From assembly GCA_046338525.1 (NCBI GenBank), contig JBKDWF010000052.1, positions 1 through 62,349 on the forward strand: DNA of 62,349 bases, given 5' to 3'. A model generated the notes under the pieces. It saw only the letters and a list, made by a program, of their open reading frames with translations. It was not told the DNA's origin and did no database searches. Positions 2,189 to 48,198 of this stretch are shown piece after piece (position 1 is the first letter of the stretch; each line of letters starts with the position of its first letter). A program made the translations under genes and the position numbers. The DNA is from Holosporales bacterium. GTDB lineage: Bacteria; Pseudomonadota; Alphaproteobacteria; JAJTHO01.

Positions 2189-2452
2189 GGGTGAAAAGCC
2201 ATTGGTTTTTCTTATTTTAAATACCCCCTTCCTCACCTTCCCCCGCTGCGCGGGAGAAGGAGGCAACGGGCGGCGGCGTTATACCCCGATAATGCTGGAA
2301 TAGAGCCAATTTCAGGGCTTGTGTGCATAGGGTAGGCCGAAAGGAGAGGTCGCCAAAGATGCCGCTTTGGCGGGTGAGGGCGTAGAAACTGGAACCCAAA
2401 CATTTTAGAAAAGAGATAATCACTATATATTACTCAATAGACTGTAAATTAG
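2189..2452 (-). repeat. R3-family MITE-like element, partial copy (one terminus only)
   Basis: The reverse complement aligns along its whole length with the left ~285 bp of the element at 41798..42249. It includes the terminus ctaatttacagtctattgagtaatatata and the block ccttctcccgcgcagcgggggaaggtgaggaaggggg. Confidence 0.75.
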
Positions 2453-18327: not shown

Positions 18328-21300
18328 GTGTTGAAGAAATGGGTTTTATCAGCGCAGGAAGAAAAAAAAGGACGCGGCCTAGTGCGGCCGATGTTGGCGG
18401 CGGTGTGCGTGTTTGCCATGGAGATGCAGGCGTTTGCACTGCCCCAGGGCGGGCAAGTAGCGGCGGGGGATGTGACGATTGGGGCGGCGGCGGCGGGGTA
18501 TCAAGAGATTACCCAAACAACCGACAAGGGCATTATCAACTGGCAATCCTTTGATATTGGACAAGGTGAGCATGTGCGGTTTGTGCAGCCCTCAACCACC
18601 AGCAACACCCTCAACCGGGTGACGGGATCAACAAACCCGTCCCAAATTTTAGGGAGGCTCTCGGCCAATGGCCAAATAACCATCATTAACCCGAATGGGG
18701 TTTTCTTTAGCAAGGACAGCGTGGTGGACGTGGCCGGCCTGACGGCATCCACGGCGAACATCAAGGACACGGATTTTCTAAGCAACAAAATGGAGTTCAG
18801 CCAACCGGGCAGCTCCAACGCGGAAATTGTTAACGAGGGCACCATTACTGTGGAGCAAGCCGGCATCGCCACCCTCGTCGCCCCCAGCGTCCGCAACGAC
18901 GGGATCATCACGGCAAAACTTGGTAGAATCAACCTCGGCGGGGCGGAGAAATTCACCGTTGATCTTTACGGCAACGGCCTGATGTCCCTTGTCGTTGATG
19001 ATGCCGCCTTACAGACCGCCGTTCGCAACGGCGGCATCCTGAGCGCCGAAGGCGGCACCATCACCATGTCGGCCAAAACGGCGGGGGAGCTGGTGGCGAG
19101 CCTGACCGAGAATAGCGGCACGGTATCGGTAGCCTCAACAACCGGCAAAGGCGGCACGGTAGAGATGACCGCAACCCATGTCGCCTTGATGCCTGGCTCT
19201 ACCATTGATGCCAGAGGTAAAACAGGGGGCGGCGTGGTGCTGGTAGGCGGTGACAAGCAAGGCAAGGGCACACTGGCCAACGCGAAAAGAACCTTTATGG
19301 CGGAAACCGCTGTTATTAATGCCGACGCGACGGACAACGGCGATGGCGGGAAAGTCATTCTCTGGGCGGATGAGCATACCGATTTTTATGGTGATATTTC
19401 GGCGAAAGCGGGGGTGAATGGCGGCGATGGCGGGTTTATTGAAACATCGGGCAAACAAACTCTTATGGCTTTTGGGAACGCCAATGCGTCGGCCCCCAAA
19501 GGTAAGGCGGGGGAATGGCTCCTCGATCCGTATGATATTACTATCAACTCTGCTGGGCCCACGGCAAACGGCACCGCCCTGCCAAATTTTACCAGCAACA
19601 ACACCGGTTCTGTTGTTAGGGCTAGTGATATTCAGGCACGGTTGAATGCGGGCACCAGCGTGACGATTACCACGGGTACGGGTCCTGGCAATGGCGATAT
19701 AACGTGGGCGGCGGGGGCATCGATTAATAAAACCGCGGGCGGCAATACTGTTCTTACCCTGAATGCATCACGTAATATTGTGCTGAATAGTGCTATCTCT
19801 GCTACGGTTGGGCAACTCGGCATGGCCTTTAACGCTGGGGGCTCGGGCACCATCACCCTGTCCGCCAATTTAACCTCTAACGGCGGGAATATCACCTTTA
19901 ACCGCCCGGTTTTGCTAGGGGCGGCATCAACCATCAACGCCGGGATCGGAACGTTTACCACTACCACCGGCGCAACCATCAACGCCGGGGCGAACAATCT
20001 TACTATTATTACGAATAACATTGCGCTGGGCGGTACTATTTCAGGCACAGGTTTACTGAACTTGCGACCGTTCACGGCAACAAATCCGATATACCTTAAT
20101 AATGCCACGGCGGGGTTCAATCTCACCGCAGCCGAACTTGGGTTTCTTCAGCCAGGGTTCGCTGGTGTAACAATAGGTTGTGCTACCTGCACCGGGGGGA
20201 TGAACGTGGGGCCAATGACATGGAATGCTTTTCCGCTGACGTTGCAAAACACCACAGGCGGCATTGCGTTCCTAGGTGACCAGACTCTTGGCGGTAACAC
20301 GACGATTAATAATGCAGGCGGTGGAACTATATATTTTACCGGGAGAGTCAATGGCAATGTCAGTGGCAATCAAAACCTGACCGTCATTGGGGAAAATATA
20401 TGGATGTCTTCTGGCCATTCTTGGGGCTGGATAACGCCCCTAGGAAATGTAAGCCTGACCGCCACCAATTCCTTAAACATACACTCCGGCATTACGGCCA
20501 GCAGTATTTTTGCCCAAACTACCGGGGCAGCGGCGGATATAGTTCTTATAAATACGTTAAGTGCCAGTAGCGCGGGTGATGCCATCACATTGGTCAGTGG
20601 TCGTCATTTTCTTACCTACGGTTCCCTCATCACCCCCTCCGGCCGCTGGCTCATCTACAGCACCGCGCCGGGGAGTAACACGCTGAACGGGCTGACGGCG
20701 GGGTTTAGTCAATATAGTTGCAGTTACCCCAGCTGTGTGGTGACGGGCGGTGCGACGCAGAACGGGTTTTTGTATTCCAGCGCGGCACCTTCCAATATAC
20801 TGACCATCACCCCCAGCGTTGTGTCGGTGATTTACGGGGATGCCGCGCCGGCGAATCTTACCAACGGCACGGGGTACGGGTACACGGTGAGCGGCTTTTT
20901 AGGCGGCGATGCCGGGGTGGCGACATTCGGTGCCAACACGTTGGTTGCTAACACTAATTATAGTGCTGGCTCTACTGTTGGAGGCACCTATTTCATTAAT
21001 TACAGCAGCGGCAGTTTGGTCTTGAACTGCGGCGGGTGCAGCAACAGCTACACCCTGTCTTACGCGAATAATGCGAGTGGGGTAACGGTGGGGCAGCGCA
21101 CGGTGACGGCCTCCCTGACCGGGACGGTGAGCAAGACGTATGATGGCACAAATACGGCAACGCTGGCAGCGGGGAATTATAGTTTTAGCAATTTGTACGC
21201 CCCGGATGCTGGGTTATTGAGCATCAGCAATACTATTGCGACGTATGACACCAAAAACGTCGGCACGCTCAAGACCGTGACCATGAGCGCCGCCCCCGTT

Positions 21301-23322
21301 TTATCCGGAACCAAAGCCGCCAACTACACCATTGCGGCCACGCCGTTATCGGGAAACATCGGGACAATCACCCCCGCCAGCATTAGCTCCATCACGGGGA
21401 TCACGGCGAGCAATAAGGTCTATGATGCGGCGACGACGGCGACGCTGAACACCGGGGCGGCTGGGTTTACTGGCCGGCTGGGCAGCGATATTCTGACCGT
21501 GGCCAGCAGCACGGGCAACTTCATTGATAAAAACGTCGGCAATGCGAAAACCGTGAACATCACCGGCCTGACCCTCGGCGGGGCGGATGCGGGGAACTAT
21601 ACCCTAAGCAGCAGCACGGCTGCCGCCACGGCCAACATCACCCCCGCCAGTATTGCTCTGACCGGCCTAACCGTCACCAAAACCTACGATGCCAACAATA
21701 CTATCAACGGCGCGCTGTTTGGCAGCATCTCTACCGGAGTGAGCGGGGAAACCCTCACCTTCACCGGCAGCACGACCACCAGCAGTCCCAACGTCGGCAG
21801 TTATTCCACGGCAACGGGCAGCCTAGTCTTAGCCAACGGCACCGGGCTGGCCAGCAACTATAATCTTATCAACGTTAGCGGTACGGCCAATATCACCCCT
21901 AAATTCATCACTCTTACTGGTGCGAAGCAGAATGACGGCAACACGACAATCCTGCCTGTACATTTGTATACCAACGGGGTGATTGCTACCGGGATTGGCT
22001 TGGAGGCGTTGACCTTGACTGGCAGTGGCAGCGTAGGCGACGCCTTCTTATTGAACACGCCGCAATCCCTTGATGTGAATGGTTTATCGTTGCAAAATGG
22101 TAGCAATGGAGGTCTGGCCGCTAACTATGTTTTTGCTGGGTCTGGTCATACCGCAATGGTGACCTCAGGGCCGCCGATTACGCTTAACATTACCCCAAGC
22201 CCTGTTACGGTCATATACGGTGACAGTGCGAGTACGTCGTTAAATAATTATAGCTATACTTATGATTCTAATCTCATTCTTGCGGGCGATACCCTAGTTT
22301 TTAGTGCCAACACCCTGATGGGTAGTTCGACTTATGCGCCCGGTGTGAACGCGGGCACGACGCATGCCATTAATTACGACAGTGGCGACCTGATGATGAC
22401 CTGTAGCAGTTGTGTGGGCAATTATGTGTTGCAATATCAAAGTGCGGCTAACATCCTGACAGTTATTCCGCGCAGTCTTACCCCCACCCTTATCGGTACG
22501 GTCAGCAAGACTTATGATGCTACTAGTACGGCCAGTTTGGCCATCAATAATATTAGTCTTAGCCCCACTTGGAATGGTGAAGACATCCGGGTTTCTTCCA
22601 TCGGCAGTGCCTTCTTTGATACTCCCAGCGTCGGTAATAATAAGCTTATCACATTGACTACTAAACCAACGTTGCAAGGTTTTGGCGGGGCTAATGCCAG
22701 CAATTATGTCCTCGACTCTATCCCAGCCCCAGCCTCCATCGGGACGATTGACCAAAAACCCGTTACTGTTGCCTATGATGCTAGTCGCATTACTCAAACA
22801 AGTATGTACACCAGCACCACTCCCGTCATCACCGATCTTATCACTAGTGATGCTGTGAGCATCGATCTTACGGGTGCTTTTGCTTTGATGGACAGCCTGG
22901 GCACCAATGCACCAGCCGGAACATACGCCAGCGCTGTTGGCTTTGGCGGTAGCGCCAGTCTCACCGGTGCCAGCAGCGGCAATTACTTCCTCATCCAGCT
23001 CAGTGGTACCCTCACTGTTCTCGCTCCGCCACCACCGCCCACACCCCCTATCCCCAATGATACCATCACCATCAACCTCGAACGCCAAGGTATCCCCGGT
23101 ACATCTATGTTTTCACCGCAATGGCCTGTCCTTGAGCAAATTTCTCCGGCCACCCTTGCCGATGCTGCTTTCCGCCCTATTTTTGATAGCTATAAAGCCG
23201 ATCCCTTTAACGCTCTTTTTGTTGCTGACCTTGAACGTATTATTAACCGTAAAATCGCTAAAAATACCCCAAAACAAACAATTATACCCACCGTCTTCCC
23301 GGGTATTTATGGGAAGTTTTGA
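18328..23322 (+). CDS. Large TpsA-type exoprotein (filamentous-haemagglutinin N-terminal TPS domain, beta-helical region, multiple MBG/YDG-type repeats, Pro-rich linker, unknown C-terminal domain)
   Basis: 1664 aa. TPS motifs: INWQSFDIG, LNRVTG, ILGRLSANGQITIINPNGVFF. Repeated modules have the form ITPAS(I/L)...K(V/T)YD(G/A)T..A...GNYTL. PPPPPTPPIP lies near the C-terminus. GTG start; Met22 is an alternative. Confidence 0.85.
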   Translation: MLKKWVLSAQEEKKGRGLVRPMLAAVCVFAMEMQAFALPQGGQVAAGDVTIGAAAAGYQEITQTTDKGIINWQSFDIGQGEHVRFVQPSTTSNTLNRVTGSTNPSQILGRLSANGQITIINPNGVFFSKDSVVDVAGLTASTANIKDTDFLSNKMEFSQPGSSNAEIVNEGTITVEQAGIATLVAPSVRNDGIITAKLGRINLGGAEKFTVDLYGNGLMSLVVDDAALQTAVRNGGILSAEGGTITMSAKTAGELVASLTENSGTVSVASTTGKGGTVEMTATHVALMPGSTIDARGKTGGGVVLVGGDKQGKGTLANAKRTFMAETAVINADATDNGDGGKVILWADEHTDFYGDISAKAGVNGGDGGFIETSGKQTLMAFGNANASAPKGKAGEWLLDPYDITINSAGPTANGTALPNFTSNNTGSVVRASDIQARLNAGTSVTITTGTGPGNGDITWAAGASINKTAGGNTVLTLNASRNIVLNSAISATVGQLGMAFNAGGSGTITLSANLTSNGGNITFNRPVLLGAASTINAGIGTFTTTTGATINAGANNLTIITNNIALGGTISGTGLLNLRPFTATNPIYLNNATAGFNLTAAELGFLQPGFAGVTIGCATCTGGMNVGPMTWNAFPLTLQNTTGGIAFLGDQTLGGNTTINNAGGGTIYFTGRVNGNVSGNQNLTVIGENIWMSSGHSWGWITPLGNVSLTATNSLNIHSGITASSIFAQTTGAAADIVLINTLSASSAGDAITLVSGRHFLTYGSLITPSGRWLIYSTAPGSNTLNGLTAGFSQYSCSYPSCVVTGGATQNGFLYSSAAPSNILTITPSVVSVIYGDAAPANLTNGTGYGYTVSGFLGGDAGVATFGANTLVANTNYSAGSTVGGTYFINYSSGSLVLNCGGCSNSYTLSYANNASGVTVGQRTVTASLTGTVSKTYDGTNTATLAAGNYSFSNLYAPDAGLLSISNTIATYDTKNVGTLKTVTMSAAPVLSGTKAANYTIAATPLSGNIGTITPASISSITGITASNKVYDAATTATLNTGAAGFTGRLGSDILTVASSTGNFIDKNVGNAKTVNITGLTLGGADAGNYTLSSSTAAATANITPASIALTGLTVTKTYDANNTINGALFGSISTGVSGETLTFTGSTTTSSPNVGSYSTATGSLVLANGTGLASNYNLINVSGTANITPKFITLTGAKQNDGNTTILPVHLYTNGVIATGIGLEALTLTGSGSVGDAFLLNTPQSLDVNGLSLQNGSNGGLAANYVFAGSGHTAMVTSGPPITLNITPSPVTVIYGDSASTSLNNYSYTYDSNLILAGDTLVFSANTLMGSSTYAPGVNAGTTHAINYDSGDLMMTCSSCVGNYVLQYQSAANILTVIPRSLTPTLIGTVSKTYDATSTASLAINNISLSPTWNGEDIRVSSIGSAFFDTPSVGNNKLITLTTKPTLQGFGGANASNYVLDSIPAPASIGTIDQKPVTVAYDASRITQTSMYTSTTPVITDLITSDAVSIDLTGAFALMDSLGTNAPAGTYASAVGFGGSASLTGASSGNYFLIQLSGTLTVLAPPPPPTPPIPNDTITINLERQGIPGTSMFSPQWPVLEQISPATLADAAFRPIFDSYKADPFNALFVADLERIINRKIAKNTPKQTIIPTVFPGIYGKF

Positions 23323-41797: not shown

Positions 41798-42249
41798 CTA
41801 ATTTACAGTCTATTGAGTAATATATAATGATTATCTCTTTCCTAAAATGGGTGGGTTTCAGTTTTCACGCCCTCACCCTCCAAAGCTGCCACTTTGGCGG
41901 CCTCTCCTTTCGGCCTGCCCTATGCACACAAGTCCTGAAATTGGCTCTATTCCAGCATTAGCGCAGTGCAACGCCGTTGCTTTGAAGACGATAACGACTG
42001 CCTGTTACCTCCTTCTCCCGCGCAGCGGGGGAAGGTGAGGAAGGGGGTGTTTAAAATAAGAAAAACCAATGGCTTTTTACCCTCTCCCCGTAAGGCCGAT
42101 GGCCTTACGCCTCCCCCGCTGCGCGGGAGAGGGAGCCGCCGTAAGGCGGCGGGTGAGAGCGTTATAAGTTCGAGAATAATAGCAAGAAAAACACACTATA
42201 TTTACTGCGGAGATTAGGTTTTTAAATTACTCAATAGACTGTAAATTAG
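41798..42249 (+). repeat. R3-family MITE-like element, complete (~450 bp) with ~22-bp terminal inverted repeats
   Basis: The left terminus is ctaatttacagtctattgagtaa and the right terminus is ttactcaatagactgtaaattag. The left ~285 bp is collinear with the partial copy at 2189..2452. The only ORFs are short and implausible. Confidence 0.8.
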
Positions 42250-42906: not shown

Positions 42907-44440
42907 TGTGTCGTCGTTCAGGCAAATGTCCCAGTAAATAGCCAAGGGAATGTCCCGTAGAGTGTCCAATTTTGGGTGAGCCAAGATGGGACTGAAACGC
43001 AAGACACGAGAGGACATCAGGATGTTGCGATTTGAGGACGTGCATGACCGGTATGCGGCTGGGAAGATTAGCTGTGAGGGGGCAGCAGAGCTGCTTGCAA
43101 TCAACCGGCGGACATTTTTGCGGTGGCGGCATCGGTATGAGGAGCACGGGGGGGCGGACTGGCCGGATTTGCGGCTGGGGCAGGCACCGGCAAACAAGGC
43201 GGCCGACCGAGAGGTAGAGCGGATCACAAAGTTGTACCGGGAAAAATACCACGGTTTTAGCGTCAAGCATTTCCATCAGTATTTATGCTGGGAAGAAGGA
43301 TTTGCGCGCAGCTACAGCTGGGTCAAGCGGGCGTTGGTCAAAAGCGGGGTTGTCACCGTCAGCACGCGCGGCGGCAAGCACCGGTTGCGGCGTCCGCGTC
43401 GGCCACAAGCAGGGATGATGATGCATCAGGACGGCAGCACGCATGTGTGGTTTGGCGACAGCCCGTGCGACTTGATAATCACCATGGACGATGCCACCAG
43501 CTTAGTGACCAGCGGCTTTTTCTGCGAACAGGAGGGGACACTTTCAAGCCTGCGCGGCCTAGCCGAGACGATTGCGGCTTACGGCTTATTTTGCAGCCTC
43601 TACACCGACCGGGGAAGCCATTATTGGTACACGCCAGAAGCCGGGGAAAAGGTGGACAAAAGCCGCCTGACAGAAGTCGGGCGGGCGTGTCAACAATTGG
43701 GCATCCGGCACATACCGGCCTACAGTCCGCAGGCACGTGGGCGTTCGGAACGGCTGTTTGGCACGCTGCAACAACGCCTGACGGCAGAGCTTGCTCTCCA
43801 CGGAATTAGCCATATCGAGGATGCCAACCGCTATCTGCGCGAAATCTACCTGCCGCGGCACAACCAGAAGTTTACCGTCCTTGCCGCCGATCCCGAAAGT
43901 GCCTTTATTCCTTATGTTGGGCGGCCATTAGAGCAGATTTTGTGCGTCCAAGAAGACCGCACGGTCGGTGCCGACAATACCGTGCGCTACCAGGGAATGA
44001 TCCTGCAAATCCCAGCAAACAAGGACCGTCCTCATTATGTGCGCTGTGACGTCACGATTTGTCGGCATATCGACGGGACGCTGTCTATCCTCCATGGGCA
44101 TCGTTGTATCGGTCGTTACACCAGCAACGGCGCGCCACTACAGAAAAAAACACTCCCATGTAGCCCCGTTGTTCCCAAGAAAATATCCGCCGCATGAACA
44201 ATAAAAATAGGCTGTGGATGACAGGCAGTATGGGGATAAGTGCGCCACACAGCACCATCCTCACACCAAACCCCGCCGACGCACTTACCCGCCATACATG
44301 CCCGTGCATCCACAGTCTGCCACAACCGCCTCCGCTTAAAAAAAGGATATTGAAAAAGGTGGTGGGGACGGTCTATACCTCCACAACTTTGGGGACATTC
44401 CCCGGCTTATATATTGGGACATTTCCCCTGAGCGTTGACA
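42907..44440 (+). mobile_element. Insertion sequence (~1.53 kb) with a single rve/DDE transposase, imperfect terminal inverted repeats and a 15-bp target-site duplication. ISNCY (IS1202-group) or IS481-like.
   Basis: IRL is tgtgtcgtcgttcaggcaaatgtcccagtaaatagccaagggaatgtccc. The reverse complement of IRR is tgtcaacgctcaggggaaatgtcccaatatataagccggggaatgtcccc. The direct repeat gcgcaaataacaggc lies at 42892..42906 and 44441..44455. Confidence 0.85.
42986..44197 (+). CDS. DDE (rve integrase-core) transposase
   Basis: 403 aa. N-terminal HTH (ISCEGAAELLAINRRTFLRWRHRYEEHG). DDE candidates are HQDGSTH, LYTDRGSHY and SPQARGRSERLFGTLQ. Confidence 0.85.
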   Translation: MGLKRKTREDIRMLRFEDVHDRYAAGKISCEGAAELLAINRRTFLRWRHRYEEHGGADWPDLRLGQAPANKAADREVERITKLYREKYHGFSVKHFHQYLCWEEGFARSYSWVKRALVKSGVVTVSTRGGKHRLRRPRRPQAGMMMHQDGSTHVWFGDSPCDLIITMDDATSLVTSGFFCEQEGTLSSLRGLAETIAAYGLFCSLYTDRGSHYWYTPEAGEKVDKSRLTEVGRACQQLGIRHIPAYSPQARGRSERLFGTLQQRLTAELALHGISHIEDANRYLREIYLPRHNQKFTVLAADPESAFIPYVGRPLEQILCVQEDRTVGADNTVRYQGMILQIPANKDRPHYVRCDVTICRHIDGTLSILHGHRCIGRYTSNGAPLQKKTLPCSPVVPKKISAA

Positions 44441-44535: not shown

Positions 44536-45510
44536 ATGCGCCTAAAAACATTCACCGCCGTCAATATGCCTGATGCCATGCGGCAGGTGCGTGCCGCCTT
44601 GGGCGATGAAGCTATTATTTTATCCACTGAGCATGATAAAATAAGAAAACAGCTTCTGGTGACAGCAGGGGTGGAAGAAAAGCCCTCTTCCAAAGCAGTA
44701 AAGTCAACATTGAAGCCTAAAATTAAAGTTGAGGCGGGCGTACTGGACAGCCTCACGGACGTGCTGGATCGCCACCATCTTCCCCGCCGGTTGGCTAACA
44801 GACTGCTCCGCCAAGCCGAAGAGGTGCAAGGCAACGTCCTCCACGTTTTAGAAGAAGTTTTAGCCAGCAGCATTGCTTTTACCGAAGATATGCCCACCGC
44901 ACCGTTGGTGCTTATTGGCCAGCCTGGAGCCGGGAAAACGGTGACAGCAGCGCGCCTTGCGGCGCGGGCGCGTCTGGCCGGGCAAGAAGTTATTTTGTTC
45001 AGCACCGACACGGTAAAGGCCGGTGGCATCGAACAACTTGGCAATTTGGCGCGAGCGATGAAGGTACCTTTGCATACTGCCGAAGACCCAAAGGCTCTTA
45101 CCCACGCCATGCGGCAGATTCCCGCCGGAACCCGTGTTTTTATCGATACGGCAGGGCTTGACCCCCGCACCGATGCGGCCCATTTGACCGCCCTGACCAA
45201 AATTCCCAGTGTCGCCTTTGCGTGGGTATTACCGGTTAGCGGCGATGCTGAAGATATGCGTGAGGAGGCCGAGGCGCTGGCAACGGCTGTTCCTTTATCG
45301 GTTTTATTGCCCACCCGCCTGGATTTAGCGCGTCGGTTGGGAGGGGTTATCAATGCCGCGATGAACCTTGGCTTGCCCATTGGCCCCACGGGGATGAGCG
45401 TGAGTATTGCCAAGGGCCTGCGGCCACTCTCGGCACCGCTGCTGGCGGCCTTGATGCTTGCCGATGTTAAGGTGCCGAAGGGGCGTTTTCTAGGGGATGC
45501 AAAATCATGA
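44536..45510 (+). CDS. flhF: FlhF-like SRP-type GTPase
   Basis: 324 aa. The N-terminus MRLKTFTAVNMPDAMRQVRAALGDEAIILS is typical of the FlhF B-domain. The NG domain has G1 GQPGAGKT, G2-region STDTVKAGGIEQL, G3 DTAGLD and G4 TRLD. Confidence 0.8.
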   Translation: MRLKTFTAVNMPDAMRQVRAALGDEAIILSTEHDKIRKQLLVTAGVEEKPSSKAVKSTLKPKIKVEAGVLDSLTDVLDRHHLPRRLANRLLRQAEEVQGNVLHVLEEVLASSIAFTEDMPTAPLVLIGQPGAGKTVTAARLAARARLAGQEVILFSTDTVKAGGIEQLGNLARAMKVPLHTAEDPKALTHAMRQIPAGTRVFIDTAGLDPRTDAAHLTALTKIPSVAFAWVLPVSGDAEDMREEAEALATAVPLSVLLPTRLDLARRLGGVINAAMNLGLPIGPTGMSVSIAKGLRPLSAPLLAALMLADVKVPKGRFLGDAKS

Positions 45511-46250
45511 CACAGCCGCGCAACCGTAAAATTGTGGCCATTGCTTCGGGCAAGGGCGGGGTGGGCAAGACTTGGTGCGCCATCACACTGGCCAAAACAT
45601 TGACCGATATGAATAAGCGCGTCTTACTGATTGATGGGGATTTGGGTCTGGCGAACATTGATATTCAATTGGGGCTTGGAAATTGCTTGGATTACCGTGA
45701 TTTTCTAAGGGATAGCAAAAAAAACCTCGCCGATTGCGTGCAACAGCACGATGGCATAAACCTTATTGCCGGATCGTCCGGTTCTGGTGCATTGGGGACA
45801 CTCTCCTCGGCAAGTCTCGATAGGCTTGGTCAGGGCATTGTTTCTCTAACCCCTTATTATGATATTATTATTCTCGATCTCGGGGCCGGGGTTGATACCG
45901 CCGTGCGGCGGCTCAGCGCGTTGGCAGGTCAGATAGTAGTGGTCACGACCCCAGAACCCACGGCACTAACAGATGCCTATGCCTACATTAAAGTGACTAT
46001 GCCCCCTAAAGTCGCACTTCTTGTGAACATGGCCGATGATGCCGTTGATGGAGAGCGAGCGTATAATACATTATCGAAAGCATGCGATAACTTCTTGAAA
46101 ATAAAACCTGAATTACTGGGAATTATTCATCGGGATAAGGCCGTACCCGCCGCTATCAGGCGGCAAAAAACCATTGTTGCGGCGGCACCCCGATCGGGAA
46201 TTGTTAAGGAGATGCGGGCTGTTGCAGTATTATTAGTAAAAATTTTATAA
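45507..46250 (+). CDS. flhG: MinD/ParA-family ATPase FlhG (YlxH/FleN-like)
   Basis: 247 aa. Deviant Walker A IASGKGGVGKT. Coupled to flhF by a 4-nt overlap. The C-terminus (EMRAVAVLLVKIL) is amphipathic. Confidence 0.8.
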   Translation: MTQPRNRKIVAIASGKGGVGKTWCAITLAKTLTDMNKRVLLIDGDLGLANIDIQLGLGNCLDYRDFLRDSKKNLADCVQQHDGINLIAGSSGSGALGTLSSASLDRLGQGIVSLTPYYDIIILDLGAGVDTAVRRLSALAGQIVVVTTPEPTALTDAYAYIKVTMPPKVALLVNMADDAVDGERAYNTLSKACDNFLKIKPELLGIIHRDKAVPAAIRRQKTIVAAAPRSGIVKEMRAVAVLLVKIL

Positions 46251-46354: not shown

Positions 46355-46744
46355 ATGAAACACTTTATTTTTCGAGTAACGCGCTGGCTAGCTTGCTTTG
46401 CCGTTGCTGCTTTATTTATCGGAGGGATGACGGGGGCAGCATCCGCCCAGACGAGTAGTGGTCAACCCCGTGATGTTGGCAAAACTGTTGGAATAGGGAA
46501 AGGCATTAAAGATTCAACTTTTTTTGCAGACTCTAACGAACTCGTTATCGATAGCTACAGATCGGGCAGTGGGGTGGTGCTGGGTGTCGGCGGCCTTGGG
46601 GCGATTGCCCTCGGCGCGCTGGCCATGTTTGGACGGTTCCAATGGCAATGGCTGATGGCTCTCATTGGCGGTCTAGTTACTATCGCCGGTGTGGGCACTG
46701 CGATTCAATACCTCACGGGTGCGACAACGCTGAAGAACACTTGA
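46355..46744 (+). CDS. virB2: VirB2/TrbC-family type IV secretion pilin, paralogue 1
   Basis: ATG with an aaggag RBS. Signal peptide ...GGMTGAASA/QTSSG. The C-terminus GVVLGVGGLGAIALGALAMFGRFQWQWLMALIGGLVTIAGVGTAIQYLTG parallels Agrobacterium VirB2 ...LAVLGIVAIGISWMFGRASLGLVAGVVGGIVIMFGASFLGKTLTG. Confidence 0.8.
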   Translation: MKHFIFRVTRWLACFAVAALFIGGMTGAASAQTSSGQPRDVGKTVGIGKGIKDSTFFADSNELVIDSYRSGSGVVLGVGGLGAIALGALAMFGRFQWQWLMALIGGLVTIAGVGTAIQYLTGATTLKNT

Positions 46745-46822: not shown

Positions 46823-47137
46823 ATGAAAAAGAAAAATGTATTTTTATCGCTATTAGGAATAACAGTTTTTGTCGGTGCTATTCTGGTCGGCGCAGATACG
46901 GCCTTGGCGGCGAATCGCTCCCCCCTTGCCAAGCTAAGCCCTTTAGCTTTTGATAGTTATTTGAGTTTCAAAGGGCTATGTTACGGCGTGGCCGGAATTT
47001 CTACTCTTGGTGCCGGTGCTGTGGCCATGGGCAGTGGCCGCATGCCGACAAAATGGCTGGTGGCTTTGGTGTTATCATTAACAATGGCCTCGGGCAGTGG
47101 TGAGTTTGTTAATTATATAACGGGGGCGGATTTATGA
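46823..47137 (+). CDS. virB2: VirB2/TrbC-family pilin, paralogue 2
   Basis: ATG with an aaggag RBS. Signal peptide MKKKNVFLSLLGITVFVGAILVGADTALA. The C-terminus GVAGISTLGAGAVAMGSGRMPTKWLVALVLSLTMASGSGEFVNYITG has the same two-helix layout. Confidence 0.7.
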   Translation: MKKKNVFLSLLGITVFVGAILVGADTALAANRSPLAKLSPLAFDSYLSFKGLCYGVAGISTLGAGAVAMGSGRMPTKWLVALVLSLTMASGSGEFVNYITGADL

Positions 47138-47901
47138 AAAAGAACAATCATAGATATATACTGTTGTTTTTAATCTTGTTTTCCGGAGTTTGTTTTTCCG
47201 AGAAAGCCAGTGCCGATCTGTACGGTTCAACCACTGGCGGGGATATGTACGGAGGAGGAGGTGGCAGCGGCAAGGGTCTATACAAGAAAAACAGCGAAGA
47301 CAAAGAAGAAGATGGCAGAAGTGAGGGGCTATACAAGAAAAACAGCAGCGAAGACGAAGGCACCAGGACGATTACTCCTTCTTCAACCTCTCGCAACACC
47401 TCTACAGGCGAAACATCCGCTTTTTCTTCAGAAAACAGCGATGAAATCTTCAAAGAAGCCATTGATGTAGGCAAAGAACTGATTAAGCCAGGCCAAGATA
47501 TTCTCCAAGGCCTCAGCGTTCTCGCCATCATGGGCGTGGGCGGCATGGCCGCATTCGGGAGTTTTCCTAAAGGCTGGGCCATTGGGATTATCGGCGGGTT
47601 GTCGGTGATGCTGCTGTCCGAAGAGTTTGCCAATTGGATTGTGGATATTGCCAAAACTAACAAACCAGAAACTTTTGATGATATTAGTGAGACTGTTGTA
47701 ACAACCACAGAGATTCTTAGCGCCGATGTTAGTAATCTGATGTACATTACCTCCGGCATAGGTGTGATAGGTCTATCCACCATGGGCTTTTTCGGGGCAA
47801 TGCCATGGAAATGGGTGGGTTCCCTCATTGCGGGTCTGATGGTTATTGCTGGATCGTCGGATATTGTCGGCTATATTGTCAGCGGTCTAGCAAACGGGTA
47901 A
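47134..47901 (+). CDS. Secreted protein with a disordered Gly/acidic repeat region followed by two tandem VirB2-like pilin modules
   Basis: Signal peptide MKKNNHRYILLFLILFSGVCFSEKASA. Repeat GLYKKNSEDKEEDGRSE / GLYKKNSSEDEG. Module A is LSVLAIMGVGGMAAFGSFPKGWAIGIIGGLSVMLLSEEFANWIV. Module B is IGVIGLSTMGFFGAMPWKWVGSLIAGLMVIAGSSDIVGYIVSG. ATGA overlap with the previous gene. Confidence 0.7.
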   Translation: MKKNNHRYILLFLILFSGVCFSEKASADLYGSTTGGDMYGGGGGSGKGLYKKNSEDKEEDGRSEGLYKKNSSEDEGTRTITPSSTSRNTSTGETSAFSSENSDEIFKEAIDVGKELIKPGQDILQGLSVLAIMGVGGMAAFGSFPKGWAIGIIGGLSVMLLSEEFANWIVDIAKTNKPETFDDISETVVTTTEILSADVSNLMYITSGIGVIGLSTMGFFGAMPWKWVGSLIAGLMVIAGSSDIVGYIVSGLANG

Positions 47902-47907
47902 TGTGCC

Positions 47908-48198
47908 ATGCCAGAAAAAATCCTTCGCGCTGTTGCTAACCCGGCCACCCTGTTCTGGGCACCGCAATTGCCAGCGGGCATTAACATGGCCGTGCATGCT
48001 TTCTTTATTATCTACGGCTGGGGAATTTTCCGCATGTCCCCCCTTATCTTCATTGCCAGTTTTTTTATCTGCCACATGGTGATTGCCAGCCAAGGTGTGC
48101 GGGAACCGCACCTTAGCACCATGATCCGCGCCTGGCTTTTTGGTCGCCGCCGCACCCGCAACCTAAACCCCGGTAGAACAAAGAAATTTGTCAGTTAA
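47908..48198 (+). CDS. virB3: VirB3/TrbD-family type IV secretion protein
   Basis: 96 aa. [24 protein letters not shown]..(TM)..(TM)..[16 protein letters not shown] parallels Agrobacterium VirB3 LAATRPALFLGVPLTLAGLFMM...ERDYNAASVVLLFLRT. Confidence 0.7.

Follow-up and report, generated by a model that had tools for sequence, protein, structure and literature searches.

Here we describe a 255-residue protein from an uncultured Holosporales bacterium in which two VirB2-type pilins appear to be joined head to tail in a single chain. Its gene lies on contig JBKDWF010000052.1 of GenBank assembly GCA_046338525.1, of which we analyzed a stretch of 62,349 nucleotides (nt; hereafter the window). We assign the protein with high confidence to the VirB2 family as a two-module member, and it is very likely that its gene is the last of a three-gene, four-module pilin array situated directly upstream of virB3 on a Holosporales chromosome. 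The explanation that we consider best, and on balance probable, is that of a genuine, conserved TrbC/VirB2 family member comprising two complete pilin units and proposed to function as an uncleaved covalent dimer. The organization of the gene and its product (residue numbers given as amino acids, aa) is as follows.

47134–47901, plus strand: two-module VirB2-family gene, an open reading frame of 255 aa from an ATG start; Pfam TrbC match (E = 1.1e-12) in two stretches
47134–47214, plus strand: Sec signal peptide, aa 1–27, with hydrophobic core at aa 8–27 and model helix at 5–25
47215–47427, plus strand: low-complexity, disordered tail, aa 28–98, enriched in Gly, Ser, Thr, Glu, Lys and Asp; absent from close alleles or replaced there by other repeats
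47253–47354, plus strand: 51-nt in-frame tandem duplication found by repeat search, encoding GLYKKNSEDKEEDGRSE / GLYKKNSSEDEG
47428–47661, plus strand: pilin module 1, aa 99–176; Pfam TrbC; module hidden Markov model (HMM) match at aa 111–171, E = 3e-19
47662–47898, plus strand: pilin module 2, aa 177–255; Pfam TrbC; module HMM match at aa 190–250, E = 6e-23

The start of the fused gene overlaps the stop of the preceding pilin gene (pilin B, see below) in an ATGA. The signal peptide carries two N-terminal Lys residues and is predicted to be cleaved after ASA (MKKNNHRYILLFLILFSGVCFSEKASA/D, the slash marking the site), as read from the sequence itself rather than from a dedicated predictor; in orthologues devoid of insert, the mature N-terminus lies 1–4 residues ahead of the conserved [IV]F of module 1. 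The tail that follows is predicted to be disordered, the predicted local distance difference test (pLDDT) score being below 50 across aa 25–99 of the full-length model. Within it, the two 51-nt copies (47253–47303 and 47304–47354) are 75% identical, with the 18-nt repeat ctatacaagaaaaacagc at 47278 and 47329 as their exact core. Module 1 then comprises, in order, an amphipathic helix, a hydrophobic helix, an FGSFPKGW loop and a hydrophobic helix ending in NWIVDI, and module 2 an amphipathic helix, a hydrophobic helix, an FGAMPWKW loop and a hydrophobic helix ending in GYIVSGLANG. The helix-short loop-helix pattern that follows the signal peptide is present twice, with one Lys in each loop. Besides the hydropathy segment of the signal peptide (residues 8–27), four further segments at 122–145, 148–166, 202–223 and 227–253 and four long model helices (99–141, 146–176, 181–219 and 225–253) delineate the two hairpins, modeled with AlphaFold2 at a pLDDT of 70.7 for the core (aa 97–255) and of 52.8 for the full-length protein. 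With its 255 aa and two hairpins the protein departs from the single hairpin and the precursor of about 100–130 aa that are the family's norm.

Both halves resemble VirB2 in their own right. The whole protein matches the Pfam TrbC/VirB2 profile (PF04956, curated cut-off 27.9 bits) at 48.4 bits (E = 1.1e-12) in two stretches, and the halves taken singly match it at 26.9 bits (module 1, aa 116–182, E = 5.7e-6) and 27.3 bits (module 2, aa 183–255, E = 4.4e-6), both aligning to the same region of the profile, positions 48/52–98, which is the helix-loop-helix core. Profiles built from module-1 and module-2 orthologues align to one another in hhalign with 99.2% probability (E = 6e-20). Against PDB sequences, Agrobacterium tumefaciens VirB2 (8cue, 8exh) is the top match of the module-1 orthologue profile (E = 0.011) and the second-best match of the module-2 orthologue profile (E = 0.076), both alignments being in register across the helix-loop-helix, and a phmmer search of PDB sequences with the whole protein returned noise only. 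The profile comparisons indicate that the two modules are homologous and that both belong to the TrbC/VirB2 family. A preliminary description of this stretch had reported a Sec signal peptide and a low-complexity region of about 75 residues with a direct repeat, both of which are present as quoted, and had read the remainder as two consecutive pilin modules in one polypeptide. This reading is borne out by the separate match of each half to the TrbC/VirB2 profile, including that of the second module, for which the same description had entertained that it might be generic hydrophobic sequence.

The fusion recurs in related genomes. A protein search returned three close relatives of 194–240 aa with both modules in one frame, one of which belongs to a cluster of 20 members that includes proteins from NCBI Holosporales metagenome-assembled genomes (MAGs) under the names 'TrbC/VirB2 family protein' or 'hypothetical protein'; a genome scan retrieved the same fused gene from a MAG titled Holosporales bacterium. 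The orthologues in Holosporales MAGs are 180–264 aa long, and the close relatives keep both modules in frame with a near-invariant core. Codon comparison of four loci gave ratios of nonsynonymous to synonymous substitution rates (dN/dS) of 0.11–0.21 overall and 0.09–0.27 per module, at dS up to 0.68 overall, which indicates that both halves are maintained by purifying selection. In view of this in-frame conservation and the low dN/dS, the fusion is not an artefact and both halves are kept by selection. That two adjacent pilin genes had been joined by a sequencing or assembly error, which the preliminary description had raised as a concern, has a practically negligible probability and counts as refuted: the two modules are encoded in one frame in JGI, Logan, ENA and NCBI assemblies made independently of one another, and distant orthologues are likewise fused.

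The fusion is also ancient, given that modules 1 and 2 of the 255-aa protein are just 25% identical to one another, whereas the first module shares 47% identity with that of a distant three-module relative, and that the single-module pilin A of the same array (see below) is 62–65% identical to distant single pilins. Modules 1 and 2 are positionally orthologous among proteins that are just 25–37% identical to the 255-aa protein. A recent internal duplication was considered as well and is ruled out by the 25% identity of the modules, each of which has closer orthologues elsewhere.

An exhaustive search with aa 91–255 returned 119 representative proteins, some 25 of which span both modules at 30–38% identity. 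Counted with the module HMM, the 121 proteins collected contain one module in 92 cases, two in 13, three in 15 and four in a single case, so that 29 of the 121 carry two, three or four modules. Successive modules are spaced by a median of 80 aa (range 71–111). The mature T-pilin is 74 aa long, and a period of about 80 aa, near this length, argues that the repeats are whole pilins placed head to tail with little extra linker. An alignment of 13 multi-module proteins gives module 1 a signature of its own ([IV]F..A...G at the start, a GKMPWGWAF loop and DWIV at the end) and module 2 a conserved Asp ahead of the first hydrophobic helix, while third modules, where present, resemble a canonical single pilin and end in xQYxTG. 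The junction between modules varies in sequence and length (WIVDIAKTNKPETF, WIVEIGGQPTGEGF, WVTELAQDSEANSY), and no conserved small-x-small, signal-peptidase-like or other junction motif was seen among these 13 sequences; the absence of a recognizable motif does not prove the absence of cleavage. Searching 72,556 plasmids with the core by tblastn revealed no two-module relative, the one match obtained being a single-module TrbC/VirB2 protein on a Microvirga plasmid. The multi-module relatives are annotated merely as 'VirB2 component (pilin)' or 'hypothetical protein', and the literature that we searched for fused, tandem or multi-domain VirB2 holds no description of VirB2 chains with more than one pilin module. 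VirB2/TrbC pilins with a single module, and virB2 paralogues arrayed as separate genes, are well known. Many of the single-module relatives (P0031–P0119), of 180–410 aa, have their pilin module at the C-terminus behind a long N-terminal extension, so that among metagenomic sequences VirB2-like pilins extended in this way may be common.

The genomic surroundings of the relatives link the family to type IV secretion systems (T4SSs). In the related loci (L numbers), the modules per gene upstream of virB3 are distributed as follows.

Window, L001 and L006: 1, 1, 2
L007: 1, 3
L008 and L009: 1, 3, 3
L011: 1, 4, 2
L020: 2, 2
L016: 1, 1, 3, 1, 1
L018: 1, 1
L015 (Telmatospirillum siberiense, VirB4 50% identical): 1

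In L008 and L009 a single pilin and two three-module genes are followed by a gene for a 96-aa protein and by virB4, which overlaps it; in L009 these are followed by virB8, virB9/CagX and a gene for a TrbI/VirB10 protein. L011 has a single pilin, a four-module gene, a two-module gene (P0010, the orthologue of modules 1 and 2), virB3 and virB4, and L020 two two-module genes, virB3 and virB4. An orthologous gene with modules 1 and 2, or 1 to 3, is thus found directly upstream of virB3-virB4 in L008, L009, L011 and L020. In L019 (7703–10442), virB3-virB4 through virB8-virB9 are present without a pilin gene upstream of virB3, from which it follows that the pilin array is separable from the core in this clade; in the organism of L019 the array must be either elsewhere or missing. 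In L015 (15772–18472) and in L016/L017 (16743–18436) a secretin gene directly follows virB8-virB9, accompanied in L015 by TcpQ and PilO-like genes. With a secretin next to virB8-virB9, parts of type IV secretion and of type IV pili are combined there in an unusual way.

In view of these loci, the preliminary description was right in calling the architecture of the 255-aa protein unusual, yet it is not unique, as the protein belongs to a family of two- to four-module pilins encoded in T4SS operons. A similar qualification applies to the long N-terminal extension described there, which is present in the window's allele but is a strain-variable cassette lacking in many others rather than a fixed part of the architecture. 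Within one cluster at 90% identity, alleles of 180, 194, 209, 240, 252 and 264 aa differ almost solely in the tail, the length of which ranges from 0 to about 80 aa. Many alleles are insert-free (ASA/E-TTSSTSAISSENSDEIF), others carry one to three copies of NGSNGGDGTWGN, and the window's allele has a GLYKKNS... duplication of its own that is not found in the alleles of its relatives. A metagenome scan with a VirB3 alignment yielded two loci only. A metagenome contig with a VirB3 100% identical to that of the window carries the insert-free 194-aa allele, and its DNA equals that of the window through the signal peptide bar one base and diverges exactly at the cleavage site. Because alleles differ at this position and this contig departs from the window precisely there, we regard the tail as a cassette that changes quickly and can be dispensed with, placed at the N-terminus of the mature protein. 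It is probably exposed at the surface, as a rapidly evolving portion of a machine for host interaction.

Upstream of the fused gene lie two single-module paralogues, preceded by a pair of nucleotide-binding proteins, and downstream, at a distance of 6 nt, a VirB3-like gene.

44536–45510, plus strand: FlhF-like signal recognition particle-type GTPase; NCBIfam FlhF E = 1.2e-37, 130.4 bits, below the cut-off of 174
45507–46250, plus strand: FlhG/MinD-like ATPase; MinD E = 3e-23, MinD-type matches being below cut-offs
46355–46744, plus strand: single-module pilin paralogue A, 129 aa from ATG; Pfam TrbC E = 0.003, one module
46823–47137, plus strand: single-module pilin paralogue B, 104 aa; Pfam TrbC E = 0.0018, profile positions 14–98, one module
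47908–48198, plus strand: VirB3-like 96-aa membrane protein; weak Pfam VirB3 match, E = 0.059

Pilin A is of the canonical type (FGRFQWQW ... IQYLTG), the distant single pilins compared with it above being those at the head of the T4SS operons of L008 and L009, and pilin B is kept as a 104-aa gene in L001–L006. The VirB3-like protein shares 60% identity with the 96-aa protein of L009 whose gene overlaps the start of virB4, and its counterparts occupy the same position in L008, L011, L015, L016, L018 and L020. The block accA(-)/flhF/flhG/131/104/fused/96/infB(-), in which numbers are protein lengths, recurs in L001–L006. The flhF/flhG-like pair is present upstream in all relatives of this lineage (L001, L003 and L006) and not in L008, L009 and L015–L020, and no flagellar genes were found in the 62-kb window. 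Whether the pair belongs to the pilin system is uncertain; it might serve to position a machine at the cell pole.

A convergent infB delimits the array and overlaps the VirB3-like gene by 4 nt (48195–48198); the same 4-nt overlap occurs in L013 (976–983), and elsewhere a spacer separates the two genes, of about 369 bp in L001 and L006 (11008–11377 in L006) and about 157 bp in L003. In L006 (11098–11268) and L001 this spacer is taken up by a dispersed intergenic repeat of about 170 nt, which recurs in the window at 41901–42070 (plus strand, 84% identity) and 2201–2349 (minus strand, 73% identity); the repeat has no Rfam match and may represent a small element of mobile or REP-like nature. An insertion sequence-type transposase gene (42986–44197, with a helix-turn-helix and a faint integrase-core match) lies just upstream of flhF, synteny with the relatives breaks at about 44493, the accA of the relatives is absent from the window, and the GC content reaches 58.5% over 43001–44000. 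Further away, an ankyrin-repeat gene (160–1008) lies in a stretch of 36% GC, against about 51% for the window, and 18328–23322 encodes a 1664-aa two-partner-secretion (TPS) exoprotein of the haemagglutinin/adhesin type with a TPS domain and four YDG domains. An ankyrin-repeat gene of this kind is typical of the host-interaction effectors of intracellular bacteria. The remaining genes of the window are housekeeping genes. A promoter and terminator scan over 44.2–48.4 kb found fewer sites than in shuffled sequence and was uninformative, and an Rfam search of the whole window gave two tRNAs only.

As to how such a chain would work, we tentatively propose, with a confidence a little short of even, the following sequence of export, hairpin insertion and pilus incorporation without cleavage. 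Sec would export the protein and the signal peptide would be removed after ASA27, upon which the mature chain would enter the inner membrane in the form of two helical hairpins, with the N-terminus and tail, the inter-module junction and the C-terminus on the periplasmic side and the two short, Lys-containing loops on the cytoplasmic side. This topology is self-consistent in that each hairpin brings the chain back to the periplasmic side. The chain, not cleaved between its modules, would then be extracted by the T4SS and added to the pilus, or to a periplasmic pilin stalk, as a covalent dimer occupying two neighboring protomer positions. In the solved T-pilus, VirB2 is a U-shaped hairpin with both termini on the outer face and the loop in the lumen, assembled as a five-start filament with a 13.4 Å rise and a 1:1 VirB2:phospholipid ratio (10.1101/2022.09.25.509369). 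Since the VirB2 termini point outward and the loop is luminal, both the C-to-N junction and the N-terminal tail fit the outer surface: the junction would run along the outer face of the filament, and the strain-variable Gly/Ser/acidic tail would project from it. The fusion would, in addition, lock two diverged pilin types into a 1:1 ratio.

Several observations weigh against the covalent dimer. Taken singly, the halves fall slightly below the PF04956 cut-off (26.9 and 27.3 against 27.9 bits). Foldseek, run with the full-length and core models, superimposes T-pilus VirB2 (8exh_A) at a root-mean-square deviation of 2.9 Å over 48 columns with 27% identity and without significance (E = 3.1 and 7.0), helical hairpins being too simple for a significant score. 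Both loops (FGS.. and FGA..; the spans aa 142–146 and 221–226 read GS.. and GA..) are without a basic residue directly after the conserved Gly, at the position that aligns with the essential Arg91 of VirB2 (10.1101/2022.09.25.509369). Lys146 and Lys226 lie 3–5 residues beyond this position, at which orthologues carry G[KR] and pilins A and B retain GR. Known pilus lattices have five-fold layers, which a covalent dimer would have to tile. Finally, the 62-kb window contains no virB4, virB6, virB8–virB11 or virD4, a metagenome scan with a VirB4 alignment gave no confirmed locus, and no contig with a VirB4 homologue was tied to the lineage, so that the virB4 of the lineage was not located and a working T4SS partner for the 255-aa protein is assumed.

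Three other accounts of the protein have to be weighed, of which the first, an internally cleaved precursor, had been suggested in the preliminary description beside a minor pilin or an adhesin-like tip component. The protein might be a polyprotein precursor that, once in the membrane, is split at the inter-module junction, and perhaps also behind the tail, so that two ordinary pilins are released in equal amounts. Processing of VirB2/TrbC pilins beyond the removal of the signal peptide is known, C-terminal trimming and cyclization in RP4 TrbC and VirB2 having reportedly been described by Eisenbrandt in 1999; each repeat moreover has the length of one mature pilin, and module 2 opens with an F-containing amphipathic helix like that at the mature N-terminus of module 1. 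We nevertheless consider this account improbable, as the junctions vary in sequence and length with no conserved small-x-small motif seen, no dedicated peptidase gene is found in the array of either the window or the relatives, and the literature searched holds no report of such a precursor. That the fused protein is a membrane or periplasmic component which stays at the machine without forming an extended filament, for example as its base or as a nucleating unit, as a part of the periplasmic stalk or as a regulator of the polymerization of pilin A, likewise seems rather unlikely to us. The signature of module 1 (GKMPWGWAF, ...DWIV) differs from the C-terminal xQYxTG shared by pilin A and third modules, it is invariably the fused gene that adjoins virB3, and VirB2 paralogue arrays also occur in the obligate intracellular Anaplasmataceae. 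Against such a role, both modules retain every feature of the pilin hairpin, and some loci have two multi-module genes and up to seven modules in total, which is more like bulk subunits than a single nucleator.

It would, lastly, be conceivable that the array is an orphan, the rest of the T4SS having been lost and the pilin genes and virB3 decaying or co-opted, perhaps together with the FlhF/FlhG-like pair. The window, with no other T4SS genes in 62 kb and a convergent infB delimiting the array, agrees with this, as do the conserved flhF/flhG neighborhood in the lineage and a Holosporales review favoring a type VI system for host interaction. We hold it to be very improbable all the same, in view of the strong purifying selection on both modules and of the integrity of all four genes in every relative examined, with VirB3 96–100% identical between strains. 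In L019, too, no pilin genes adjoin virB3-virB4, and for other alphaproteobacteria that live with hosts, such as the Rickettsiales, it is normal to have their T4SS genes scattered. The uncleaved covalent dimer remains our preferred reading.

With A. tumefaciens VirB2 and RP4 TrbC the 255-aa protein shares the Sec signal peptide followed by a hairpin with a short basic loop, the match to PF04956 and the position of its gene directly upstream of virB3, here a virB3-like gene. It differs from them in having two hairpins, with a core of about 160 aa against the 74 aa of the mature T-pilin, in its variable disordered tail, in lacking the basic residue aligned with Arg91 and in the absence of an adjacent virB4. 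Multiple pilins in one system have precedents, in that several diverged VirB2-type pilins stand side by side for one T4SS where separate virB2 paralogue arrays occur, as do the two single-module paralogues of the window; Bartonella Trw, for instance, has multiple TrwL copies. MPF_G (Tfc9/Tfc10) and MPF_I (TraQ/TraR) have two VirB2-like pilins each (PMC4027160), and in Anaplasma and Ehrlichia VirB2-1 to VirB2-n form arrays of separate paralogue genes. In those systems each paralogue has its own gene of about 100–130 aa, whereas in the window and its related loci two to four modules share one chain. The closest counterparts are the multi-module loci of uncultured alphaproteobacteria (L007, L008, L009, L011, L016 and L020; P0005–P0030), which have the same order of modules 1 and 2, the same adjacency to virB3 and the same period of about 80 aa, but many of which have a third, canonical module or four modules, most of which are without a low-complexity tail, and in which virB4-virB8-virB9 follow. 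By analogy only, BMC-T proteins, the tandem-domain shell proteins of bacterial microcompartments, are likewise fused lattice protomers in which one chain fills several positions and the copies diverge; their fold and assembly are unrelated, and they illustrate no more than the proposed logic.

Members of the Holosporales are associates of eukaryotes, for the most part of protists. A 2025 review of the group considers a type VI secretion system the most credible candidate for host interaction; in its main text 'T4SS' is absent, and 'type IV secretion' is found twice, two occurrences being in the reference list. More tentatively still than the mechanism given above, it is possible that a clade of alphaproteobacterial T4SSs builds its pilus or stalk from concatenated pilins of two to four hairpins mixed with single pilins, and that in Holosporales the tail diversifies the host-facing display. 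If so, the filament would be a stitched heteropolymer with fixed subunit ratios, bearing in Holosporales a fast-evolving surface tail of variable repeat length. The solved conjugative and T-pilus structures and the assembly model derived for them assume a pilin of one hairpin in a 1:1 ratio with phospholipid, levered singly out of the inner membrane, and multi-module pilins are unaccounted for by current pilus-assembly models. A family with two to four hairpins per chain therefore puts this model to the test on joint extraction, on covalent links along the outer face of the lattice and on the order of diverged modules, and it records how pilin genes have multiplied, diverged and fused within one T4SS clade, whose loci hold between a single module, as in Telmatospirillum siberiense, and seven.

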